A stretch of DNA of 54,960 bases from a virus. Taxonomy: Duplodnaviria > Caudoviricetes. Positions 27,846-52,189 of the stretch are shown here, piece after piece. Position 1 is the first letter of the stretch. Each line of letters begins with the position of its first letter. The notes under the pieces are model-generated. The model saw only the letters and a list, made by a program, of their open reading frames with translations, was not told the origin of the DNA and did not search any database. The DNA lies in IMG/VR virus record IMGVR_UViG_3300046028_005371, positions 1 to 54,960 of that record. One strand, written 5' to 3'. The position numbers and the translations under genes are program-made.

Positions 27846-29132
27846 ATGTTCTGTAAAACAGTGTGGAACGGGTTACACATTTTGCCGGATGGTTATATTA
27901 GGCTTTGTTCGATTGGGAATAATTTTGACAGTACATTAGATATGCAACGAGCAAGAGACAAAGATGGCAAAGTAATGCACATACTAACTCACGATATCAA
28001 GGATATTATGAACTCTGATAAACATAAACAGGTTAGAGCGACTAATATTAAAGATCCTAGTGCATGGAGCCCTCATTGCGATTGTTGTGAAAATAGAGAA
28101 ATAGTTACAGGTTTTGACAGGAAACATCCTAACAAAAGTCGTCGTGTGTATTTGATGCAGGTAGACAGTGAAGTTAATGAAGATAATTTTAAAAATTCTG
28201 CAGAAATCGATGGGACAGTTGACTGGATGCCAAATAGTTTAGATATTAGATTTGGAAACTTATGTAATCAAAAATGTATAATGTGTAATCCTACTTTTAG
28301 TAACTTATGGTATGATGAGCATTACGGTTATTTTAAAAATAATAATTTTGGTCAAGGATCAAAAATTACTGTTATAAAAGATGAAAAAACAGGTAAGTGG
28401 ATTGAGCCCCCTGAATTAAGTTGGTTTGAAGATCCTAGATGGTGGCCGAAGTTTGACACTATGATGCCCTATCTAAAACATATCTATGTTACAGGAGGAG
28501 AACCCATGGTAGCTCCTGCACACGATATAATGTTAGATAAATTAATAGAATCGGGATATGCAAAGGATATTTGGTTAGAATATGATAGTAACTGTAGCGC
28601 CATTAATAATAAAATTGTCGAAAGGTGGTCGCATTTTAAAAGAGTAGATATTCGAGCAAGTGCAGATGCTATTAAAGATCAATATGAAGTTATTCGATAT
28701 GGCGGTAAATGGGACAAGTTTGTAACCAATATTAGAAAATTAAAACAACACCAAAAAGAATCTAATAATAAAATTAGATTAATGAGCGTGTCAACTTGTT
28801 TTCAGATTGCTACATCTATGAGTATTATTGAAACCGAAGAGTGGTGTAAGGAAGAAGGAATTGATTTCCATATGAGATTCTTAACAGGACCAGATTTTCA
28901 TGCAGTATCAAGTCTGTCCGATACTGCAAAGATAAAATTAAGAGATTATTATCTTCAGTATGTTAATACATCTTTAAAGGCTCCTATGATTGTAAAATAT
29001 TTAAATAATCAATTAGGAAAACACAAACCCTCTGCAGTTGAAGAATTTAAGAAATTTATGGATTTTTTAGACACTACTCGGAATACCAATTGGAAAAAAA
29101 TATTTCCAAAAATCGTAGGCTTATTAGATTAA
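27846..29132 (+). CDS. Radical SAM protein with N-terminal twitch/SPASM-like Cys cluster
   Basis: CKTVW...DGYIRLC; CNQKCIMC; TGGEP. Confidence 0.88.
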   Translation: MFCKTVWNGLHILPDGYIRLCSIGNNFDSTLDMQRARDKDGKVMHILTHDIKDIMNSDKHKQVRATNIKDPSAWSPHCDCCENREIVTGFDRKHPNKSRRVYLMQVDSEVNEDNFKNSAEIDGTVDWMPNSLDIRFGNLCNQKCIMCNPTFSNLWYDEHYGYFKNNNFGQGSKITVIKDEKTGKWIEPPELSWFEDPRWWPKFDTMMPYLKHIYVTGGEPMVAPAHDIMLDKLIESGYAKDIWLEYDSNCSAINNKIVERWSHFKRVDIRASADAIKDQYEVIRYGGKWDKFVTNIRKLKQHQKESNNKIRLMSVSTCFQIATSMSIIETEEWCKEEGIDFHMRFLTGPDFHAVSSLSDTAKIKLRDYYLQYVNTSLKAPMIVKYLNNQLGKHKPSAVEEFKKFMDFLDTTRNTNWKKIFPKIVGLLD

Positions 29133-35101: not shown

Positions 35102-35563
35102 TTATACATGCCAAATTTCCGTAAAGCCTTCTTCAAGGACAGGCTCTTCCCAACTGGCAATCATGCTGGCAATAACATGATCTGGGATTTCCTTGCCCGG
35201 CCGGCTCATTAATCGACGCATAAGTTCTTTATGCTCTGGTGTTTTGAATACCACAGCAATATGTTCATAGTCTGGAAGCATACGGAACTTCTTAGCACGT
35301 CTAGAAACAGTAGTGTTGGTCTGATCCCAAACTATATCTCGATTCATTTCACGTGCCACAACAACTTCTTCAGCCATTAAGCCAATGGCTGTGGGCATGA
35401 AATCTGTAAACACTTTGGAATAAGTAAGACCTACTTCTTTAGCATAAAGTTCAACCCATTTGTCTGTGCTAACTTTAACACAAGAAAAAGCCCAGGCCTG
35501 CTTATCTACCCAAGTAGATTTGCCGGACCCAGGCACTCCAATCAATTGATAACATTTTGGCAT
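35102..35563 (-). CDS. Polynucleotide kinase-like P-loop protein
   Basis: GVPGSGKST, STD, DQTN and R..R motifs. Confidence 0.85.
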   Translation of the reverse strand: MPKCYQLIGVPGSGKSTWVDKQAWAFSCVKVSTDKWVELYAKEVGLTYSKVFTDFMPTAIGLMAEEVVVAREMNRDIVWDQTNTTVSRRAKKFRMLPDYEHIAVVFKTPEHKELMRRLMSRPGKEIPDHVIASMIASWEEPVLEEGFTEIWHV

Positions 35564-35679
35564 TATAATACCTCTACTATATAATATCCTGAATTAGGAT
35601 AATTTTCTAATAACCATTCCAACATGCCTGGTTCAACAGGCAGTTGGATGGAATTGTACTTGTTAGTAATATAAGTCAT
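35563..35679 (-). CDS. Small hypothetical protein
   Basis: 38 aa, MTYITNKYNSIQLP...; coupled to neighbours. Confidence 0.5.
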   Translation of the reverse strand: MTYITNKYNSIQLPVEPGMLEWLLENYPNSGYYIVEVL

Positions 35680-35680
35680 A

Positions 35681-36286
35681 TTACATTGTTGGCCCGTTGC
35701 CACTCTTAAATCCAACGCTTCCACCTTCTTCTTCGATGCGTTTGATAACATCTTCAAACAAGATAGGCGCAAAATCCGGAGTTTGCTCCACGCAAACACA
35801 ATGGTAACGTGGATCAATTTTGTCACTGTACAAAACTTCTCCAGTTTTAGCATCAACGCCACGAGCCTTCTTCACGCGATTTGCGTGTAAGTGTCCGTGA
35901 ATGTTGACACCGAAACGACCCATTGAATCCGAATGTAACGGAATATGGCTAAGAATCATACCGTTCATAACGTGATAAGCTCTAAGTTCTCTAAAGTACA
36001 AGCGATAATCGTCGTCTTTAAAGATATCGTGGTTACCACGAATTAAAACTTTGTCGCCGTTAAGTCTGGATAAGATTTTTAACGATTTACGATTGATAAC
36101 AACGTCACCCAAATGATAGACTTTGTCAGTAGGCTTGACTCTTTCGTTCCACGCCTTGACCATCGCCTCATCCATTTCATCTGCGTCATCCCACGGTCTT
36201 AACTTGGTAACACCGTCATTACGTGTGAAGCGACATACACCAGTGTGACCAAAGTGCGTGTCGCTGACTAAAAATACACTAGGCAT
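35681..36286 (-). CDS. Calcineurin-like metallophosphoesterase
   Basis: SDTHFGH, LGD, GNHD and HGHLH motifs. Confidence 0.92.
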   Translation of the reverse strand: MPSVFLVSDTHFGHTGVCRFTRNDGVTKLRPWDDADEMDEAMVKAWNERVKPTDKVYHLGDVVINRKSLKILSRLNGDKVLIRGNHDIFKDDDYRLYFRELRAYHVMNGMILSHIPLHSDSMGRFGVNIHGHLHANRVKKARGVDAKTGEVLYSDKIDPRYHCVCVEQTPDFAPILFEDVIKRIEEEGGSVGFKSGNGPTM

Positions 36287-36301
36287 ACATTTCTCCTTTT
36301 A

Positions 36302-36865
36302 TTAAATATCACCTTCTAATTTTCTACGCTCTCGACGTTCAGCCGCTAACGTAAAAACTTTTTCATTGTCATTGGTCCAATCTATTGCTTTCTTGGGAAT
36401 GATCAAACCAGATTCGAGCGTCACACCGTTAATGGTATGAGTCTCGTTCTCGTCATAGGTCCACCCCAAGTGCTTCATCATACGATGTTTGACGCACAGA
36501 TTAGGACTGCGGAACACTTCGGTATCCTCAAAGCCCATCATGACTCCGACTTCACAGACTGCGCCACTACGGCACACACCTGCTACACAATGAACAACTA
36601 CGTTCATACGGTTATCCAGTGCATGTTGTAGCAACTGAGATAGTTTAGCGGCTTGCTCGTGACTGCAACGCATTTCTTCTTCCAGGCACTCGTCGCGTTC
36701 TTCGATGTCCAAAAATTGAAATTGATGAACTTCTTTAAACTTGTACAACGGAGTAGGAAAATCTCCAGGCGGATCCACAATTTGAATTAGCATGGCGTTC
36801 TCGCCCGGGTTAATGTGATGTCCTTTTTTGATGTCGCTTAGTGCAACGTTTTGAATCCATGGCAT
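36302..36865 (-). CDS. Cys-dependent (PTP/DSP-like) phosphatase
   Basis: VHCVAGVCRS (CX5R). Confidence 0.85.
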   Translation of the reverse strand: MPWIQNVALSDIKKGHHINPGENAMLIQIVDPPGDFPTPLYKFKEVHQFQFLDIEERDECLEEEMRCSHEQAAKLSQLLQHALDNRMNVVVHCVAGVCRSGAVCEVGVMMGFEDTEVFRSPNLCVKHRMMKHLGWTYDENETHTINGVTLESGLIIPKKAIDWTNDNEKVFTLAAERRERRKLEGDI

Positions 36866-36866
36866 T

Positions 36867-37895
36867 TTAATCACCACCCTTTAATAAAAATTTATTTGAA
36901 ATTGCCTTGAACGAACATTGCATGGCCTTGCTTTTAAACACAAGACCTTCACGTTCACAGCCAATCATTCCCATAACTGATTTGCCTTCTGCAAATTTCA
37001 GAATATTGTCAATGCTGTTGATGCCTAAAGTATCCCACAATTCGGCACCAAATGCTAGCACAGGCACATGTTTGATATCGTGTTCTTCAACAAATGCATT
37101 ACGTTCAGTAGGAGTTAGATATTTGCCAGTATCAATATCGTAGATATCAAACAAGAAAAATTCCTGTCCTTTTTGCTTGTATGGATTACCTTGGATACCT
37201 TCTCCAATCAACTCACCCTGTAGTGCAAGATTACGATTGGCACGACGAAGCTTCAACTCCAAATCATTGCGTACTGCAACCTTCCATAGGCTGTTGGTTT
37301 CGCTGGGCTTGAGTTCAAGATTACGGCTACACACACCAAACTCGCCGTCACGTAGGTACACAGTCATTGAGCTGCCATCCAGCTTTTCAGTGACTTCCCA
37401 TACATGTTGTTCTCTAAGCCAGTAGTCAAATTCTTCTTTCAAGTTTTGAACACGTTCTTGGTCAGTCTTTTGGATCCAACCTGGGAACATGCCTTTGACT
37501 TCTCCTGCCAACTGTGCAGGGACGGGAGCTTCGTATTTCACAATGCCTAGTGGAAATGATACATCGAGTCCTTCAAACAACTCTGATTCTACCATAGTCA
37601 ATGTAGACAACGGCAACAACAGTCCCTGGCTCAATTGCCCACGTAGTTTCATTGTACGCAGTCGTTCACCAGCAATGCCGTCAAACACTCGAGGCTCCTT
37701 GCCCTTGCTCAAGAATGGGGCCAGTGCGTGAGGAATCCAAGAATCGATTTCGCAATACACAGCAAGATCGCCTTGTTTGAATTCGCCCTTTTTAACTACA
37801 GCAGTCCATCCACCGATGACTGCACATTCGATAGCATCGGCATCCGGGATAGGACGCAGAGCATCAATCTTCCTAATGGTTGCTAATTTACGCAT
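36867..37895 (-). CDS. RNA ligase, DRB0094 family
   Basis: N-terminal OB domain (RKLATI, ADAIE, LRGQLSQG); TEKLDGSS, QGEL, FDI, EGLV and FKAIS motifs. Confidence 0.92.
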   Translation of the reverse strand: MRKLATIRKIDALRPIPDADAIECAVIGGWTAVVKKGEFKQGDLAVYCEIDSWIPHALAPFLSKGKEPRVFDGIAGERLRTMKLRGQLSQGLLLPLSTLTMVESELFEGLDVSFPLGIVKYEAPVPAQLAGEVKGMFPGWIQKTDQERVQNLKEEFDYWLREQHVWEVTEKLDGSSMTVYLRDGEFGVCSRNLELKPSETNSLWKVAVRNDLELKLRRANRNLALQGELIGEGIQGNPYKQKGQEFFLFDIYDIDTGKYLTPTERNAFVEEHDIKHVPVLAFGAELWDTLGINSIDNILKFAEGKSVMGMIGCEREGLVFKSKAMQCSFKAISNKFLLKGGD

Positions 37896-41235: not shown

Positions 41236-41325
41236 TGGTCCCGCAGTGTGGAATCGAACCACATCCTGGACCTTATCTAGATTAATCGCTTATAAAACGA
41301 CCTGCTCTCCTTGAGCTACTGCGGG
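41236..41325 (-). tRNA. tRNA with UAU (Ile) anticodon and long variable arm
   Basis: Loop UUUAUAA; variable region of about 20 nt. Confidence 0.8.
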
Positions 41326-44047: not shown

Positions 44048-44122
44048 TGGTAGCCACGGACAATTTTGAAATGTCGACTTATCGCTTATCAAGCGATTAC
44101 TCTGCCTCTGAGTTACGCGGCT
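44048..44122 (-). tRNA. tRNA-Ile(GAU)
   Basis: AUCGC-UUGAUAA-GCGAU; 5' end overlaps the HNH stop codon. Confidence 0.85.
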
Positions 44123-44568
44123 AATTTTCTATTTCTGCCACGCCATGTTGGTGTTTGTGCGTGACAGTTTGGACAAAGACACTCTAAATTAGATCTGTCA
44201 TTGTTTTTGTTGTTTCCATCGATATGGTCTAATTCTAAGCTAAGAGATTCTCCTAACCAATCAGTTAGACCACACTTGTTACATTTATGATCTTGCTCAA
44301 TTAACACTTTCTTACGACGGCCATCGTGGCCTAGTAATTTAGTGTCCGAAGATAGTAATCGTTGTTTAGCAGTAGCAGATCTACCGTTAGACCCTTTTAG
44401 CGACCGCTGTTTTAATTTTTCTTTGCCAAAGGAAGAAAATACTTCCTTTAATTGTTTTGATCTTTCTTCTTTTTGTATATCTGTCCATGTTCTACTATTA
44501 GCACATGTTCTACTACAAAAAATTCCAGGCTTAGTGTGTGCTGTGTTGCACTTAGGGCATAGTTTCAT
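44113..44568 (-). mobile_element. Free-standing HNH homing endonuclease
   Basis: CNKCG...LELDHIDGN..NN...NL..LCPNCH; N-terminal FCSRTC Zn finger. Confidence 0.9.
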
Positions 44569-45144: not shown

Positions 45145-45157
45145 TTAATTCATTAAC

Positions 45158-45272
45158 TGGTACGACCGGTAGGTTTCGAACCTACAAGAGCACGGTAACT
45201 ATGTTATGTGCCCCTTCCCCATTCTATGCTATGAGCATAGCGGGAGGTCTGCCATATTCCACTTACGGTCGC
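45158..45272 (-). tRNA. 115-nt tRNA-like RNA with extended anticodon arm (CAU loop) and long variable arm
   Basis: GCGACCG/CGGUCGU-ACCA; T arm GUAGG-UUCGAAA-CCUAC; CUAUG-CUCAUAG-CAUAG stacked on an extra helix. Confidence 0.7.
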
Positions 45273-45316: not shown

Positions 45317-45408
45317 TGGCGGAAAGCAGAGGAGTCGAACCCCATCCCCGTTAAGAGAACCTGGTTTTCAAGGCCAGTCGCAGGACCATCCCCGCTGCAT
45401 TACTTTCC
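45317..45408 (-). tRNA. tRNA-Ser(UGA), probable 8/4 fold
   Basis: 8-bp acceptor GGAAAGUA/UGCUUUCC; 4-bp T stem; loop CUUGAAA. Confidence 0.8.
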
Positions 45409-45658: not shown

Positions 45659-45746
45659 TGGTGTAGCGTGATGGAATCGAACCACTTGACTGCCACCCTG
45701 CTTAATAAGTCTACCGGGTTACAGCCGGCAACAGGGAACACACTAC
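45659..45746 (-). tRNA. D-armless tRNA-Tyr(GUA)-like RNA
   Basis: Acceptor GUAGUGU/ACGCUAC-ACCA; UGCCGG-CUGUAAC-CCGGUA; T arm present; no D hairpin. Confidence 0.7.
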
Positions 45747-45751
45747 ATATT

Positions 45752-45835
45752 TGGTGGATGCGGTTGGATTCGAACCAACGTGCTGTTACGAACGGATTTA
45801 CAGTCCGTCACCTTCGGCCTCTCGGTCACACATCC
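45752..45835 (-). tRNA. tRNA-Tyr(GUA)
   Basis: Canonical class II cloverleaf. Confidence 0.92.
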
Positions 45836-45844
45836 AATTTGTTA

Positions 45845-45972
45845 ACACACTCACGACCGGTAATTACCAATCCATAAGCAAACTATGTTCACTTATAAAG
45901 AATGTGTGTATTAAAATGTTCTAGACTATATCCGTTCCGGCGCTTTCAAGGCGCTATGAAAACATTTTAATA
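45845..45972 (-). ncRNA. Two tandem stem-closed RNAs; the upstream one shows a Ser(UGA)-like anticodon loop
   Basis: UAUUAAAAUGUU/AACAUUUUAAUA enclosing GCGC-CUUGAAA-GCGC; ACACAUUC/GAGUGUGU enclosing two hairpins. Confidence 0.5.
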
Positions 45973-47704: not shown

Positions 47705-48434
47705 ATAAATTATCAATAATCTCTGTGTAATAAGTTTCTAAAATATCTGTCACGTATGATATTTTATCTGCATTGAAATCTTCATTGAGTTGGGTGGATA
47801 GCCAAGACAATATTGCTGCTGTGTCTTTGTTTGATAATAATGTATAAAAATCAAAATATTCTGTAACAGGTTTGTTGTTAAATTTCTTCAATGAATAGTT
47901 CCAAAATATATCAGTCAATGGATAACATATTTTACACCTAGTACTTTGATATAAATTTGCTATTTCTGTCTTTGGAATTAGTGAAATACATCGAATGTTA
48001 TATCCAAGATCCTGCATTTCTTTAAAAGGAATAGCTTTATCCCAAGAATGAATTCCGTATAATATTCTATAATTTTTCATTTCATATTTAGAATTTTCGT
48101 AAAATTTTAATTTGGTATCCCCCCAATTCCACTGTTGTTGGCCGGCCAATAAATGTGTTCCTAAAAATTCAAAAAATTGAACATAGTCATTTATACCAGT
48201 GGGTTCACAACGGTCTAAAAACCAATTAGTAATTCTTTTTGGTACAATTATTTCATATGCTATCTCTCTAGAAGATTTATGAGAATTAATAGGAATATCA
48301 GATAAAATTTTAGTATTGGTATAATCTAATTTAATATCCAACTCTGACCAAATACGCATTAGAAGTTGACCGGATCCGCCGGGTAAATAGTCGAACAATA
48401 TTAATTCATTATTTGTTAAAAATGGGTATTTCAT
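47697..48434 (-). CDS. Hypothetical protein, possible sulfotransferase-like P-loop
   Basis: DYLPGGSGQLL N-terminal loop. Confidence 0.45.
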   Translation of the reverse strand: MKYPFLTNNELILFDYLPGGSGQLLMRIWSELDIKLDYTNTKILSDIPINSHKSSREIAYEIIVPKRITNWFLDRCEPTGINDYVQFFEFLGTHLLAGQQQWNWGDTKLKFYENSKYEMKNYRILYGIHSWDKAIPFKEMQDLGYNIRCISLIPKTEIANLYQSTRCKICYPLTDIFWNYSLKKFNNKPVTEYFDFYTLLSNKDTAAILSWLSTQLNEDFNADKISYVTDILETYYTEIIDNLYV

Positions 48435-49405
48435 TGTTTTGTTTTAGTGGTTAACAGATCATGAAAACACCCACATGTAACCTTATTACAAATAACTGCG
48501 TTATTAGAAAAATTATACTTAAGATCGTCAACATGTCCAATTGGGCCAGTGACTCCACATACTGATCTGTTAATAGTCTGGAAGTTAATGTCCAAGAAAT
48601 CTTTTCCTACCTGACATTCCCATCCTAAAAATTTATTCCATTTATTTTTCATAAGTTGTTGAACGTTAATATTTTTTGTAATTCCTAAATTATTAGTTAC
48701 TAATAATTCAGCACCTAACCGTAACTTATTTGGAATAGGAGATTTTTTTTTAATATTTGTTAGTATTCCAGGTTTATAACTAGCGTGTTTAATAATAGAT
48801 AGTTCTTCCTCTGAGTATAGGTCATAGATATCATATTCGTCAATATTCATTCCTTTAATATCAATTATTCCACCAGTGTTGTTTATTAAATAATTAAATG
48901 CGTTAATTGCTTGAGGAATATTATCTTTAGTATGTGTAACTTCACATACTGTTTCAGTTTCAAAATTAAGAAATAAATTCATTATATCAGCAATATTATT
49001 ATAATCAACCGTTTGTTCAGCATGATATGTTAATGCTAGACGAGTTAATATATTATCAATTTTGGCCAATTCTTTCCACCAGCGCATTGTTCTAGAACCG
49101 TTACTTGCTAATATATTCCAAGCACCTTTATTTTTTGAATGCTGCAATAACTCTATTAAATCAGGATATAATGTAGGTTCACCTCCAGTATAAACAATAT
49201 AAAAAGGAGTTCCTACACATGCCTCAGCAATTTTATCAACAATTGATTTGTACTTTTCTAATGTAAACCACCGTTCATTTCCACTATTATTTTCTTTACC
49301 ACAAAAACTACACGAGTAATTGCATACATTATGTAGTTTCCAGTTAATTACTTTAAATGGTTGAGGGACTGATCTTTTAACGTGAATTGGATATACATTA
49401 TTCAT
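48431..49405 (-). CDS. Radical SAM protein
   Basis: CNYSCSFC, TGGEPT, SNG; C-terminal Cys cluster. Confidence 0.88.
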   Translation of the reverse strand: MNNVYPIHVKRSVPQPFKVINWKLHNVCNYSCSFCGKENNSGNERWFTLEKYKSIVDKIAEACVGTPFYIVYTGGEPTLYPDLIELLQHSKNKGAWNILASNGSRTMRWWKELAKIDNILTRLALTYHAEQTVDYNNIADIMNLFLNFETETVCEVTHTKDNIPQAINAFNYLINNTGGIIDIKGMNIDEYDIYDLYSEEELSIIKHASYKPGILTNIKKKSPIPNKLRLGAELLVTNNLGITKNINVQQLMKNKWNKFLGWECQVGKDFLDINFQTINRSVCGVTGPIGHVDDLKYNFSNNAVICNKVTCGCFHDLLTTKTKQ

Positions 49406-50172
49406 AATTTTAGTAAGTGACTTATGCATAAACGATTGACTGATCCCCGTTTAAAACTTATATATTTTTCAGAGTAATCTAATCCAAATAATATAGTATT
49501 AGACGGTATAAGGTTAAATTCTTGGCAAACAGCTAATTGAGAATCTTTATATTTTTGTATCATTGAGTCCGGAGACATTGTATCTAATAATGTATAATGA
49601 TGTTCAGCACAGGCTACTAGTGGATAATGCCACTGCGAATATACGGTTACTGGATACGGATCTACGGTATATAATAATCCAACTCTATGTAATCCTGTGC
49701 CAAAAGATTTAGATAATGAAAAACAAACACTGTGTATATTTTTATAACTAGAAAAATCAAAATCTATATCGTGACATACTCCAAAAAAAGCACAGTCAAC
49801 AAATATGGGTTTATTATAAGAATCTGCAATTTTAATTTTTTCATGTGAACTCATTCCGTCAGCACTAAATGGATGACTTACTACTATTGCATCTGCTTCG
49901 TCTAAATTAAAAGTAACACGATTTTTAATAACCAATGAATGATAGCCATATTCACTTTCAAATATTCCTATCTTATTATACATTCCATACATTTGATTAA
50001 ATGCATCAGTTACACCTGATACAATATAATATGATTTAGGCAATCCTTTTACCGGTTGAGTGGATGAGTGAATCCATTTATTAAATTTTTCTTTAAATTT
50101 AATAAATTGAGAAATATCTACTGATTCTGGCTCTATTGCAATTGCTGCATTTGTTATTTTATCAAATCTCAT
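49402..50172 (-). CDS. PLP-dependent aminotransferase-like enzyme
   Basis: GVTDAF, VDCAF, FSLSKSF, RVG; paralog of 31918-32841. Confidence 0.8.
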   Translation of the reverse strand: MRFDKITNAAIAIEPESVDISQFIKFKEKFNKWIHSSTQPVKGLPKSYYIVSGVTDAFNQMYGMYNKIGIFESEYGYHSLVIKNRVTFNLDEADAIVVSHPFSADGMSSHEKIKIADSYNKPIFVDCAFFGVCHDIDFDFSSYKNIHSVCFSLSKSFGTGLHRVGLLYTVDPYPVTVYSQWHYPLVACAEHHYTLLDTMSPDSMIQKYKDSQLAVCQEFNLIPSNTILFGLDYSEKYISFKRGSVNRLCISHLLKL

Positions 50173-50648
50173 ATGACTACACCAATTAAATGTAATCTAG
50201 GTTTATTAGAACAATTCATAAACGTATGTAAGTTAACCGTATTAGTCCAGTATACTAAGCCTGCAGGCATATGTCGAATAATGCCTGACTTAAAAACAAA
50301 ATAACATTCTGGATTAGTGATCATAGGTATATGAATTCGAGGAGTAGTGTCTTTGTGCATACTGTAACAGGTCATAGGACTAATCCACATAAGTCTTGTT
50401 CTTTTTAATTTATATTGATTAATTAAATCTTCAAAAATAGTATCTTTGAAAAAGGGATTTAGATTAGTATATGCAAGCTCATCGCCATTGCTTGTACCAA
50501 CAGCACTAGCCCACGGATCTTCATTCTCTTTAAATTGTAATCCGGTTTGTTTCTTACCATTATAATCTGTCCATATAATGTCTTTTTCAATATTAAAATA
50601 GCAGTCTAATATCTCAGTAATAGGGCATGTTTCAATAATCTTTATCAT
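50169..50648 (-). CDS. Aspartyl/asparaginyl beta-hydroxylase-like oxygenase
   Basis: YSMHKD, RIHIP, HTFMN and RLHL motifs. Confidence 0.8.
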   Translation of the reverse strand: MIKIIETCPITEILDCYFNIEKDIIWTDYNGKKQTGLQFKENEDPWASAVGTSNGDELAYTNLNPFFKDTIFEDLINQYKLKRTRLMWISPMTCYSMHKDTTPRIHIPMITNPECYFVFKSGIIRHMPAGLVYWTNTVNLHTFMNCSNKPRLHLIGVVI

Positions 50649-52189
50649 ACAGTATTTACTTTGACAATTTCAGCATCATGTTTTAACATAGTTAACAAAT
50701 TTGGAAAATATTCAGTAGTCGGATCTTTGATTGTACCTGTCTCTGAATTGTACCTACGAAAATTATTTACAGTAGATAATTTTATTTTATTTTGTATGCC
50801 AGCATTTAATAGTCTTGCGATTGCATTTGATTGAATAAAACTTGTTATGTCAGAATCATCATTTTTAGTCCAATGACCAATATGCATATTTTCTTTTGTA
50901 ATTACATATCCGTATTTTTCATATGATCTTTCTAGTTCACTTGTAGGTTTATTTGGGTAAAGTTCTGGCGGAGTTATAATTAACGGAAAATAAAATATAT
51001 CATGCACTGGGCAGTCTGGTTGCATAAACCAAGTATGACTCTTACACATATCTGCATAGGATTCATGCGGGAGTCCAATAATATATCCTCCCTGAACACG
51101 TACTCGATCTCCCCATATTTTTTGTACATAATATAAAGTCTGTTTACGTTTTTCTGAATCCATACCTTTACCAATTACCTTGGCACTTTTAGGATGGAAG
51201 GTTTCGATACCAACGAATACCATGTTTACACCAATGTCTAATAATAACTGAGCTTGTTCTGGATGTGTTGCTATTAGATCAATACGTATATAACATCTAA
51301 ATCTTGGTTTGAACGGTAATAACTTTACAACTTCAGCCACACATTTTAATTTTTCAGTTGAATCATTAAAGGTGTCATCGGCTACAAAATAATCAGTAAT
51401 TCCCCATTTTGTATAGTTATCTAATAGTTCTGTATAAAGCGACTTTGAATCTTTAACGTATTTTGCTATATCTTTTTTTCCTATTAACGGCCAGGCGCAA
51501 AATAAACAGGAAAATCGACACCCCCGCGCAATTTCTATAGTCATTAGTTCATCACTACGAATTTGATCATATTTGGTATAACTAGTAAAACTTTCTAACC
51601 ATCCCCAGTTTTTACTCTCGGCAGAGCTATCGTAGTTAATTAAAGTATTCCAAATACGATTTGGTTGTTGTAAAAAATCTAATATTTGTACCTCGCTGTA
51701 TCCTGCCATAAAATGATCCGCTGGAAAATCTGTATACCAATCTATTTTAACACCTCCTAAAAGTATTTTAGTTTTTGAATTGTATTTTTTTACAAGATCG
51801 ACCCAGGGCTTTGCTTTACCTAAGAATGCAGATTCGGTGAGTGTGTTCTGACCATTGTTCCCAAACATTGATCTATCACGATTTACTTCTTTAGAGTCAT
51901 GCGATCCATTCGAGGGAATAGGAAGTTGATTGTCTGTTTTATTTCTATAAGGCCACCAGCTAGAGCTAAAACCTACAAATCTTGTATCGGTGCCTATTGA
52001 GACTTTAAGAATTTCTTCCCAAATATGGATATCAAGTGCTGAAGAAAAATCAATTACTAATACCGAATAACCGTTTTCTCTAAGATGTGTAGCTATTCTG
52101 TGTGCTCCGTATCCCCTAACCCACTTTGGATAGTCTGCGGTATCGGTAACAATTATTGCATTAAAATTATTAGTAGGTACATTTATCAT
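50645..52189 (-). CDS. B12-binding radical SAM enzyme (class B-like)
   Basis: N-terminal cobalamin-binding-like domain (GFSS, LGG); ARGCRFSCLFC, DDTF, GIET and IIGLPHES motifs. Confidence 0.88.
   Translation of the reverse strand: MINVPTNNFNAIIVTDTADYPKWVRGYGAHRIATHLRENGYSVLVIDFSSALDIHIWEEILKVSIGTDTRFVGFSSSWWPYRNKTDNQLPIPSNGSHDSKEVNRDRSMFGNNGQNTLTESAFLGKAKPWVDLVKKYNSKTKILLGGVKIDWYTDFPADHFMAGYSEVQILDFLQQPNRIWNTLINYDSSAESKNWGWLESFTSYTKYDQIRSDELMTIEIARGCRFSCLFCAWPLIGKKDIAKYVKDSKSLYTELLDNYTKWGITDYFVADDTFNDSTEKLKCVAEVVKLLPFKPRFRCYIRIDLIATHPEQAQLLLDIGVNMVFVGIETFHPKSAKVIGKGMDSEKRKQTLYYVQKIWGDRVRVQGGYIIGLPHESYADMCKSHTWFMQPDCPVHDIFYFPLIITPPELYPNKPTSELERSYEKYGYVITKENMHIGHWTKNDDSDITSFIQSNAIARLLNAGIQNKIKLSTVNNFRRYNSETGTIKDPTTEYFPNLLTMLKHDAEIVKVNTV

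Follow-up and report, generated by a model that had tools for sequence, protein, structure and literature searches.

A covarying and very probably pseudoknotted D-stem in a tRNA-Tyr-like gene of a phage tRNA array

How does a gene that keeps the acceptor, anticodon and T arms of a tRNA-Tyr, and that encodes no D hairpin, make up for the missing arm, if it does so at all? The question is raised by a DNA window of 54,960 nucleotides, the whole of the stretch analysed here (IMG/VR virus record IMGVR_UViG_3300046028_005371; Duplodnaviria, Caudoviricetes), in which an 88-nt tRNA-Tyr(GUA)-like gene occupies 45659-45746 of the minus strand, immediately downstream from a canonical tRNA-Tyr (45752-45835). 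The record is only 15% complete by CheckV and is thus a piece of a jumbo phage; near-identical DNA is present in 14 sequencing runs labelled lake water metagenome. An earlier note, made from the letters of the window alone, had proposed that a pseudoknot with the variable arm rebuilds both the D stem and the GG contact at the tRNA elbow. We find that two crossing helices, one in the place of the D stem and one in the variable region, exist in the relatives of the gene and are under selection, and that the covarying D-stem is very probably pseudoknotted.

The gene, whose 88 nt include an encoded CCA, is recovered at its exact coordinates by a covariance model of the family (R1) with 100.9 bits. 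Its acceptor 5' strand of 8 nt (RNA 1-8, 45739-45746) pairs with 45670-45663, and all eight pairs covary. The stem comprises 7 bp and an eighth G-C pair, in which residue 8 is the G and the partner C would belong to the T stem in a 7/5 tRNA. A UU linker (RNA 9-10, 45737-45738) leads from the acceptor stem to the top of a helix that we call helix X, whose 5' strand CCCUGU (RNA 11-16, 45731-45736) occupies the place of the D-stem 3' strand, immediately 5' of the anticodon stem. The stretch from the acceptor to the anticodon stem is GUUCCCUGU(U) alone, with the ten bases G-UU-CCCUGU-U; no D hairpin is present between the two stems, where there are 9-10 nt, and the partner of CCCUGU lies 30 nt downstream. 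The anticodon arm (RNA 17-35, 45712-45730) has a 6-bp stem including U17-A35, all six pairs of which covary, and the loop CUGUAAC with GUA at 45722-45720.

The variable stem, here stem V, is a 4-bp helix of GACU (RNA 36-39, 45708-45711) with AGUC (RNA 56-59, 45688-45691), closing a loop of 16 nt. This loop begins with the linker L2, UAUUAA (RNA 40-45, 45702-45707), which leads back from V's far end to the base of helix X. The loop continues with the helix X 3' strand GCAGGG (RNA 46-51, 45696-45701), the counterpart of the D-stem 5' strand, and directly after it comes the D-loop-like tetranucleotide UGGC (RNA 52-55, 45692-45695). An AA linker and the T arm (RNA 60-76, 45671-45687) follow, with a 4-bp stem GUGG/CCAU, three of whose four pairs covary, and the loop UUCGAUU. 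The remaining stretch (45659-45670) holds the 8-nt acceptor 3' strand, the discriminator A at 45662 and CCA at 45659-45661. The observation of a D-hairpin-free tRNA-Tyr-like gene at 45659-45746 is confirmed, and the parts that the earlier note had named are all there on the minus strand: an intact acceptor, GUA anticodon arm and T arm, a reduced D region, a variable loop with GCAGGG complementary to CCCUGU (45701-45696 with 45736-45731) and then UGG, and the canonical tRNA-Tyr next door.

Standard tRNA finders pass over this gene. ARAGORN called 38 tRNAs in the window and the Rfam tRNA model (RF00005) gave 36 matches there at its gathering score, none of them on the rewired gene; ARAGORN in its mitochondrial and relaxed modes gave 0 genes. 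The sole Rfam match to the gene is tRNA-Sec with 25.9 bits, below the gathering score of 47. Over 73 sources with a Tyr-type element ARAGORN made 0 calls on the element, with the exception of one copy (L249), over which it calls a 100-nt tRNA-Tyr. The minimum free energy (MFE) fold of the single sequence has an extended anticodon arm, interrupted by a 10-nt bulge, and lacks the V stem; its z-score is -1.61, with 15 of 200 shuffles folding equally well. The chance of finding some 6-bp complement within a region of about 25 nt was estimated at about 5%. The single sequence on its own is within chance, and significance rests on the relatives.

Relatives were collected by several searches. A 26-mer search gave 17 viral contigs; a search with the anticodon arm only, by which the pairing was not forced, gave 56 contigs; and a pattern for the 3' half, silent on the 5' half, gave 110 stretches, from which 80 loci were taken. 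In addition, patterns excluding G34 were run over viral and metagenome contigs, a Tyr pattern was searched for in 185,579 prokaryote genomes, each representing one species, and R1 was applied to whole phage records and to samples of two bacterial phyla. Two alignments were analysed: one made with MAFFT from 56 distinct sequences, identical copies having been dropped (A2), and a set of 78 distinct sequences aligned by model (A4), from 77 member-bearing sources among about 260 loci. Sources of the relatives are jumbo-phage tRNA arrays, metagenomes and a single order of Planctomycetota. The anticodon is GUA in 65 of the 78, UCU in 8, UCG in 2, UAU in 2 and CCA in 1, and the members with the last four anticodons likewise sit within tRNA arrays.

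Most matches to the G34-excluding patterns were due to chance and were discarded: on viral contigs six of nine lacked acceptor or T pairing by eye, and 83 of 92 metagenome contigs failed a four-helix test. An 801-nt blastn query against 50,697 GenBank phage records found nothing over the element in the best 40 of 393 matching records, and an 88-nt query found only T-arm matches, in 13 Pseudomonas phages; a cultured relative was not found in these searches. A protein-anchored search from the nearest open reading frame (ORF) led to 3 loci, with the element in none of the parts examined.

The pairing of CCCUGU with GCAGGG is maintained by compensatory change. Helix X is 100% paired in A2, where its two variable pairs occur as U-A (24), C-G (23), G-U (7), A-U (1) and U-G (1), and as A-U (29), G-C (17), C-G (7), U-A (2) and G-U (1). 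It is 99.4% paired in A4, where four of the six pairs change on both sides and one shows all six standard pair types. Covariation of these two strands among homologs was the check that the earlier note had put forward, and compensatory changes are present in both alignments. The whole-structure covariation score of A2, 0.504, is reached by 0 of 500 shuffles, whose mean is 0.138, and sliding the partners lowers it to 0.097 or less. Helix X comes in 12 sequence types, and its switches were repeated, since five identical acceptor backgrounds bear 2-4 types each.

Stem V is 3-5 bp long in the relatives, and its middle pair occurs in A4 as C-G (41), G-C (25), A-U (7) and U-A (3). An all-against-all mutual-information scan of column pairs ranked this V pair first and the two X pairs second and fourth, and RNAalifold, run unaided, arrived at helix X and at the stems of the acceptor (8 bp), the anticodon arm and the T arm (4 bp). 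A4 as a whole has 98.7% of its cells paired, with compensatory change in 23 of 27 pairs, in an alignment that was fitted to the model and is therefore biased towards the model's nested helices. A2 is free of this bias, and the nested helices were judged from it; stem V is free of it as well, being absent from the model. The eighth acceptor pair is G-C in 71, U-A in 5 and U-G in 2 members of A4. The sixth anticodon-stem pair is U-A in 51, G-U in 11, A-U in 4, C-G in 1 and G-C in 1, and is unpaired in 10 of 78. Linker L2 measures 5-8 nt and linker L3, which starts with UGG and connects the helix X 3' strand to stem V on the other side, 3-5 nt. For two candidate extra pairs of helix X, the seventh and eighth (U9 with G53), the columns hold hardly any variation.

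Helix X and stem V cross, and both covary, which makes the structure very probably a pseudoknot. In the fold that we propose, the D-stem 3' strand (CCCUGU) would keep its normal place while the 5' strand (GCAGGG) and UGGY would sit inside the loop of the variable stem, so that the D-stem would form as a pseudoknot with this short stem. Helix X would stack on the anticodon stem in the fashion of a D-stem, the elbow would bring UGG to the T loop, and the RNA would stay L-shaped and be aminoacylated with Tyr. In textbook tRNA geometry residue 8 is next to residues 21-22, residue 10 is next to residue 45, and the D loop ends close to the foot of a long variable arm; judged from this, the swapped strand joins look sterically easy.

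The remainder of the molecule carries the marks of a tRNA. A37 is found in 78 of 78 members, U33 in 74, the 3' tail ACCA in 66 and a discriminator A in at least 70; the T-loop sequence conforms to UUCRANY, on a T stem of 4 bp instead of 5. The GG of UGG never varies in A2 and, both G's being invariant, cannot covary. The base before it (45695; column 54 of A4) is U in 75 of 78 members and C in 3. Set against T-loop position 6 (45676; column 74), it gives the combinations U/U in 70, U/C in 4, U/A in 1 and C/C in 3, so that the C before GG never occurs without the T-loop C; the three C/C cases belong to one phage lineage and two Planctomycetota. In tRNA-Sec, U16:U59 and C16:C59 contacts have been reported (PMC7609411), and the co-change of C with C resembles them. 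It hints at an elbow contact and does not prove one. Thus, of the rebuilding that the earlier note envisaged, the D stem is borne out by the covariation of X and V, and the GG elbow contact is left with this hint.

The fold can be set against those of known tRNA types. The 8/4 allo-tRNAs, and the 8/4 tRNA-Ser and tRNA-His, which are known from bacteria and phages (Mukai et al. 2017, PMC5389517), have the 12-bp acceptor branch that is also found in the rewired tRNA-Tyr. Allo-tRNAs are described there with a tRNA-Sec-like D stem-loop of long stem (6 bp) and tetraloop, a long variable arm, and acceptor and anticodon stems of increased length; they likewise occur in phage tRNA clusters, and share the long variable arm and longer anticodon stem with the rewired gene. 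Their D-arm is a contiguous hairpin (PMC5389517), whereas here the 6-bp stem and UGGY lie on non-contiguous strands. The words tyrosine and pseudoknot have 0 occurrences in the main text of that article. tRNA-Sec (RF01852) is alike in its 8-bp acceptor stem, 6-bp D-strand followed by UGGY, 6-bp anticodon stem and long variable arm, its Rfam consensus D-arm being two six-base strands with a UGGU loop between them; it differs in having a UCA anticodon, a 13-bp branch and a D hairpin, against GUA, 8+4 = 12 bp and a pseudoknot in the rewired gene. The canonical tRNA-Tyr of the same array, a bacterial class II tRNA-Tyr, shares GUA, the discriminator A, G1-C72 and a long variable region, but has 7/5 stems and a D hairpin and is called by both ARAGORN and Rfam. 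Mitochondrial tRNA-Ser(AGY) and the engineered mini HisT (PMC11551756) also have no D hairpin and a short connector between acceptor and anticodon stems. Their connector is partnerless, the molecule is Y-shaped and there is no D/T elbow, while the connector of the rewired gene is 99-100% paired in a covarying 6-bp helix and GG is kept. The rewired gene matches the 8/4 allo-tRNA/tRNA-Sec fold except for the contiguous D hairpin, and is a variant of this fold and not a member. The full-text literature searched holds no description of such a tRNA; supplements, notably that of PMC5389517, might hold one.

Ordinary 8/4 class-II-like tRNAs are also present in the window. A tRNA-Ser(UGA)-like gene (45321-45408, minus strand) combines an acceptor stem of 8 bp with a T stem of 4 bp and carries a long variable arm; it is missed by ARAGORN and by the Rfam tRNA model at its gathering score, its best match being tRNA-Sec with 34.9 bits, and it looks like the (8/4) tRNA-Ser type already reported from phages. 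A 90-nt tRNA-Ile(UAU) (41236-41325, minus strand) has an 8/4 fold with a compact D-arm and a long variable arm, and Ile(UAU) calls of 90-95 nt recur in most related arrays.

Can the rewired gene serve as a tyrosine tRNA? It occurs in tRNA arrays, is single-copy per phage genome, and in some arrays completes the set of 20 amino acids. A complete phage genome of 383 kb (CheckV 100%) has 41 ARAGORN tRNAs for 19 amino acids. The rewired gene, again without an RF00005 match, stands at the head of its tRNA array and is the sole Tyr candidate; ARAGORN, run on the stretches holding all 40 Rfam tRNA matches, found no canonical tRNA-Tyr. Among the 73 Tyr-type sources, 14 arrays cover the other 19 amino acids in the part fetched, and a canonical tRNA-Tyr is present in seven and absent in seven of these, the fetched parts being incomplete. 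R1 gave one strong match (98-105 bits) in each of five phage records, where ordinary tRNAs score 25 bits or less. The tyrosyl-/tryptophanyl-tRNA synthetase (TyrRS/TrpRS) domain PF00579 was not found in any of the five phage records; therefore a host enzyme would have to charge the tRNA. The bacterial Tyr identity set is GUA, A73 and G1-C72. Translation of 8/4 allo-tRNAs in E. coli has been reported (PMC7609411), and bacterial translation tolerates a tRNA without a D-arm, the engineered mini HisT (PMC11551756).

Outside phages, the family reaches bacterial chromosomes. In the 185,579 species genomes the strict Tyr pattern had three matches, in a metagenome-assembled genome (MAG) of Melioribacteraceae, where the match lies within a tRNA array, and in two Planctomycetota MAGs. 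This pattern under-counts, since R1 later gave strong matches (at least 69 bits) in 8 of 25 genomes of the order of the first Planctomycetota match. R1 matches of this strength were found in 6 of 151 sampled Planctomycetota genomes and, in the other sampled phylum, in 1 of 151, namely the starting genome only. In Planctomycetota the rewired Tyr lies in a small conserved cluster, with a 79-nt tRNA-Leu on each side of it and Ser, Cys and Ser genes after it; where examined, topoisomerase I and an R2K ATP-grasp gene flank the cluster. The cluster is 5.3 kb from a normal Thr-Tyr-Gly-Thr cluster with a canonical tRNA-Tyr. The other members of this odd-tRNA cluster (L148:7692-8324 in Planctomycetota G001, with syntenic copies in L251, L252 and L258) include 8/4 tRNA-Ser genes with a 6-bp D-stem, and the 79-nt tRNA-Leu are short for class II; all the tRNAs of the cluster appear to be duplicates of normal tRNAs elsewhere in the genome.

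Taken together, we consider it probable that the gene encodes a working tRNA-Tyr of a jumbo phage that receives Tyr from the host TyrRS and serves the host ribosome, a view drawn from sequence comparison. Several points count on the other side, besides the bias of A4 noted above. Position 33 is C instead of U in 4 of 78 members. The L shape and the contact of GG with the T loop are features that we infer. A canonical tRNA-Tyr stands alongside in about half of the full arrays, as it does in the examined Planctomycetota genome, so that the rewired gene is often redundant. Many allo-tRNA(UAU) species have been reported to be inactive in E. coli translation (PMC5389517), and a tRNA-like 8/4 fold is thus no guarantee of function. 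Part of the window stretch is present in six RNA-library runs, four of which were examined, and in one of the four, contigs lie over the bins of the element, with a summed depth of 23-48, a coverage that is no proof of transcription, as DNA carry-over and cross-matching of conserved parts of tRNAs are possible; these contigs carry a relative's letters at 45707/45708. The back-up role that the earlier note had suggested would suit the seven arrays with a canonical tRNA-Tyr, and does not suit the other seven or the complete 383-kb genome, where the gene is the only tRNA-Tyr.

The RNA might instead be a structured tRNA mimic without a decoding role, acting as a decoy or regulator, for example as a sponge for a tRNA-Tyr-directed nuclease or a tRNA-binding factor, or, in a variant of the same idea, as part of a toxin-antitoxin-like circuit as proposed for some allo-tRNAs. 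We regard this as unlikely, though not without support: a canonical tRNA-Tyr coexists in 7 of the 14 full arrays and in the examined Planctomycetota genome; an RNA-repair gene set beside the array (35102-37895) suggests that the phage meets tRNA damage; most tested allo-tRNA(UAU) species were reported as inactive and linked to toxin-antitoxin loci (PMC5389517); and retron-Eco7 is reported to deplete tRNA-Tyr, an effect countered by phage tRNA-Tyr (PMC11555353). Yet rescue from the retron required a tRNA functional in protein synthesis (PMC11555353). The family keeps the acceptor end, the discriminator, CCA, A37 and the T loop just as working tRNAs do, and a decoy has no need of a 12-bp acceptor branch, the part that EF-Tu reads. 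A pure decoy, the other role suggested by the earlier note, also becomes less likely because the gene is often the only tRNA-Tyr of its phage (7 of 14 arrays), and in the complete 383-kb genome it is the sole candidate beside tRNAs for 19 other amino acids. A decaying pseudogene that had lost its D-arm, with the complementarity arising by chance, would explain the silence of the tRNA finders and the non-significant single-sequence fold. This reading was rejected on the covariation in A2 and A4: with 78 distinct relatives, 98.7% of cells paired and compensatory change in 23 of 27 pairs, its probability is negligible.

A different doubt is whether helices X and V form simultaneously. They could be alternatives in a D-armless tRNA, which would then switch between a 12-bp extended anticodon arm, with X on the anticodon stem, and a plain variable hairpin, or would have a floppy Y shape likened to mitochondrial tRNA-Ser(AGY). 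Covariation proves each helix and not their co-existence, L3 is short at 3-5 nt, and the single-sequence MFE fold has the extended anticodon arm and lacks the V stem. Tight loop lengths, with L2 of 5-8 nt and L3 of 3-5 nt carrying UGG, are nevertheless expected of a defined tertiary fold; the invariant GG and the three-of-three co-changes of C with C fit an elbow contact that needs both helices; and the 6-nt strand with UGGY matches the tRNA-Sec D-arm consensus. We therefore hold alternative helices to be improbable. A further reading is a recoding allo-tRNA, charged through its long variable arm by seryl- or leucyl-tRNA synthetase (SerRS or LeuRS) and thus placing an amino acid other than Tyr at UAY codons. 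The 8/4 branch together with the length of the variable arm would allow it, the fold is common to other anticodons, and SerRS is reported to charge such allo-tRNAs whatever the anticodon (PMC7609411). The gene sits, however, in arrays exactly where the Tyr tRNA is missing. At least 70 of the 78 members have A as discriminator, whereas SerRS prefers G73, and GUA, A73 and G1-C72 together are the Tyr identity set, which makes recoding very improbable.

If the gene does encode a working tRNA-Tyr, the question is what the altered core is for. Four RNA healing-and-sealing genes adjoin the tRNA array on the same strand: a P-loop kinase (AAA_33; 35102-35563), a metallophosphoesterase (35681-36286), a dual-specificity-type phosphatase (DSP; 36302-36877) and an RNA ligase with a PHA02142 OB domain (36867-37895). 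These genes, together with the report on retron-Eco7 and tRNA-Tyr (PMC11555353), make a conflict over tRNA integrity plausible, which does not make the rewired fold the answer to that conflict. It is a speculative possibility that the altered core lets the tRNA escape factors of the host or of competitors that recognise tRNA-Tyr by shape, and an evolution of the gene for nuclease evasion is likewise a tentative idea. We would put forward with similar reserve a joint reading, in which an L-shaped tRNA with a D-stem made in trans by a pseudoknot, natural and outside mitochondria, would be used in bacterial translation with at least five anticodons. It would serve as Tyr, two Arg, Ile and Trp tRNAs in jumbo phages and have become fixed in a Planctomycetota lineage. 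It would be kept for being invisible to shape-reading nucleases or defence systems, the factors evaded being those that deplete tRNA-Tyr or tRNA-Arg.

Reviews and recent work hold that cytosolic and bacterial tRNAs vary only in the sizes of their arms (PMC11551756), and a covariation-backed family with changed strand connectivity would be a counter-example to this. For annotation, it means that real tRNA genes of phage arrays escape the standard finders, and that phage sets described as missing tRNA-Tyr may actually be complete. Tyrosine, lake jumbo phages and the chromosomes of Planctomycetota are added to the 8/4 allo-tRNA story. The family also offers a natural scaffold for orthogonal tRNA design and a testable candidate for phage escape from tRNA-directed immunity.

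A few further observations concern the array and its surroundings. A conserved motif of the GTGTGTTAACAA type precedes the first tRNA of the array, and lies in the window at 45836-45850 (minus strand), before the canonical tRNA-Tyr; in many relatives (e.g. L007, L012, L022 and L041) it stands directly before the rewired Tyr, and it could act as a promoter or leader signal. At 45155-45272 (minus strand) lies a tRNA-like RNA of about 115 nt with a 7-bp acceptor stem, a T arm and ACCA, in which an extended stem carries a hairpin with CAU and another long hairpin is present (fold z-score -3.27). It drew no call from any tool, and is 95% conserved in L086, L092 and L103 and 73% in L017. A weak HNH-endonuclease ORF, possibly a homing element, is found within the tRNA array (44113-44568, minus strand), and three radical-SAM proteins, one with SPASM, are encoded within 25 kb (27846-29132, plus strand; 48431-49429 and 50645-52189, minus strand). 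Related phage contigs also carry genes resembling transfer-messenger RNA (L034:2999-3329, L037:10997-11327 and L038:8548-8982), for two of which ARAGORN gives the tag ANDSVYALAA.
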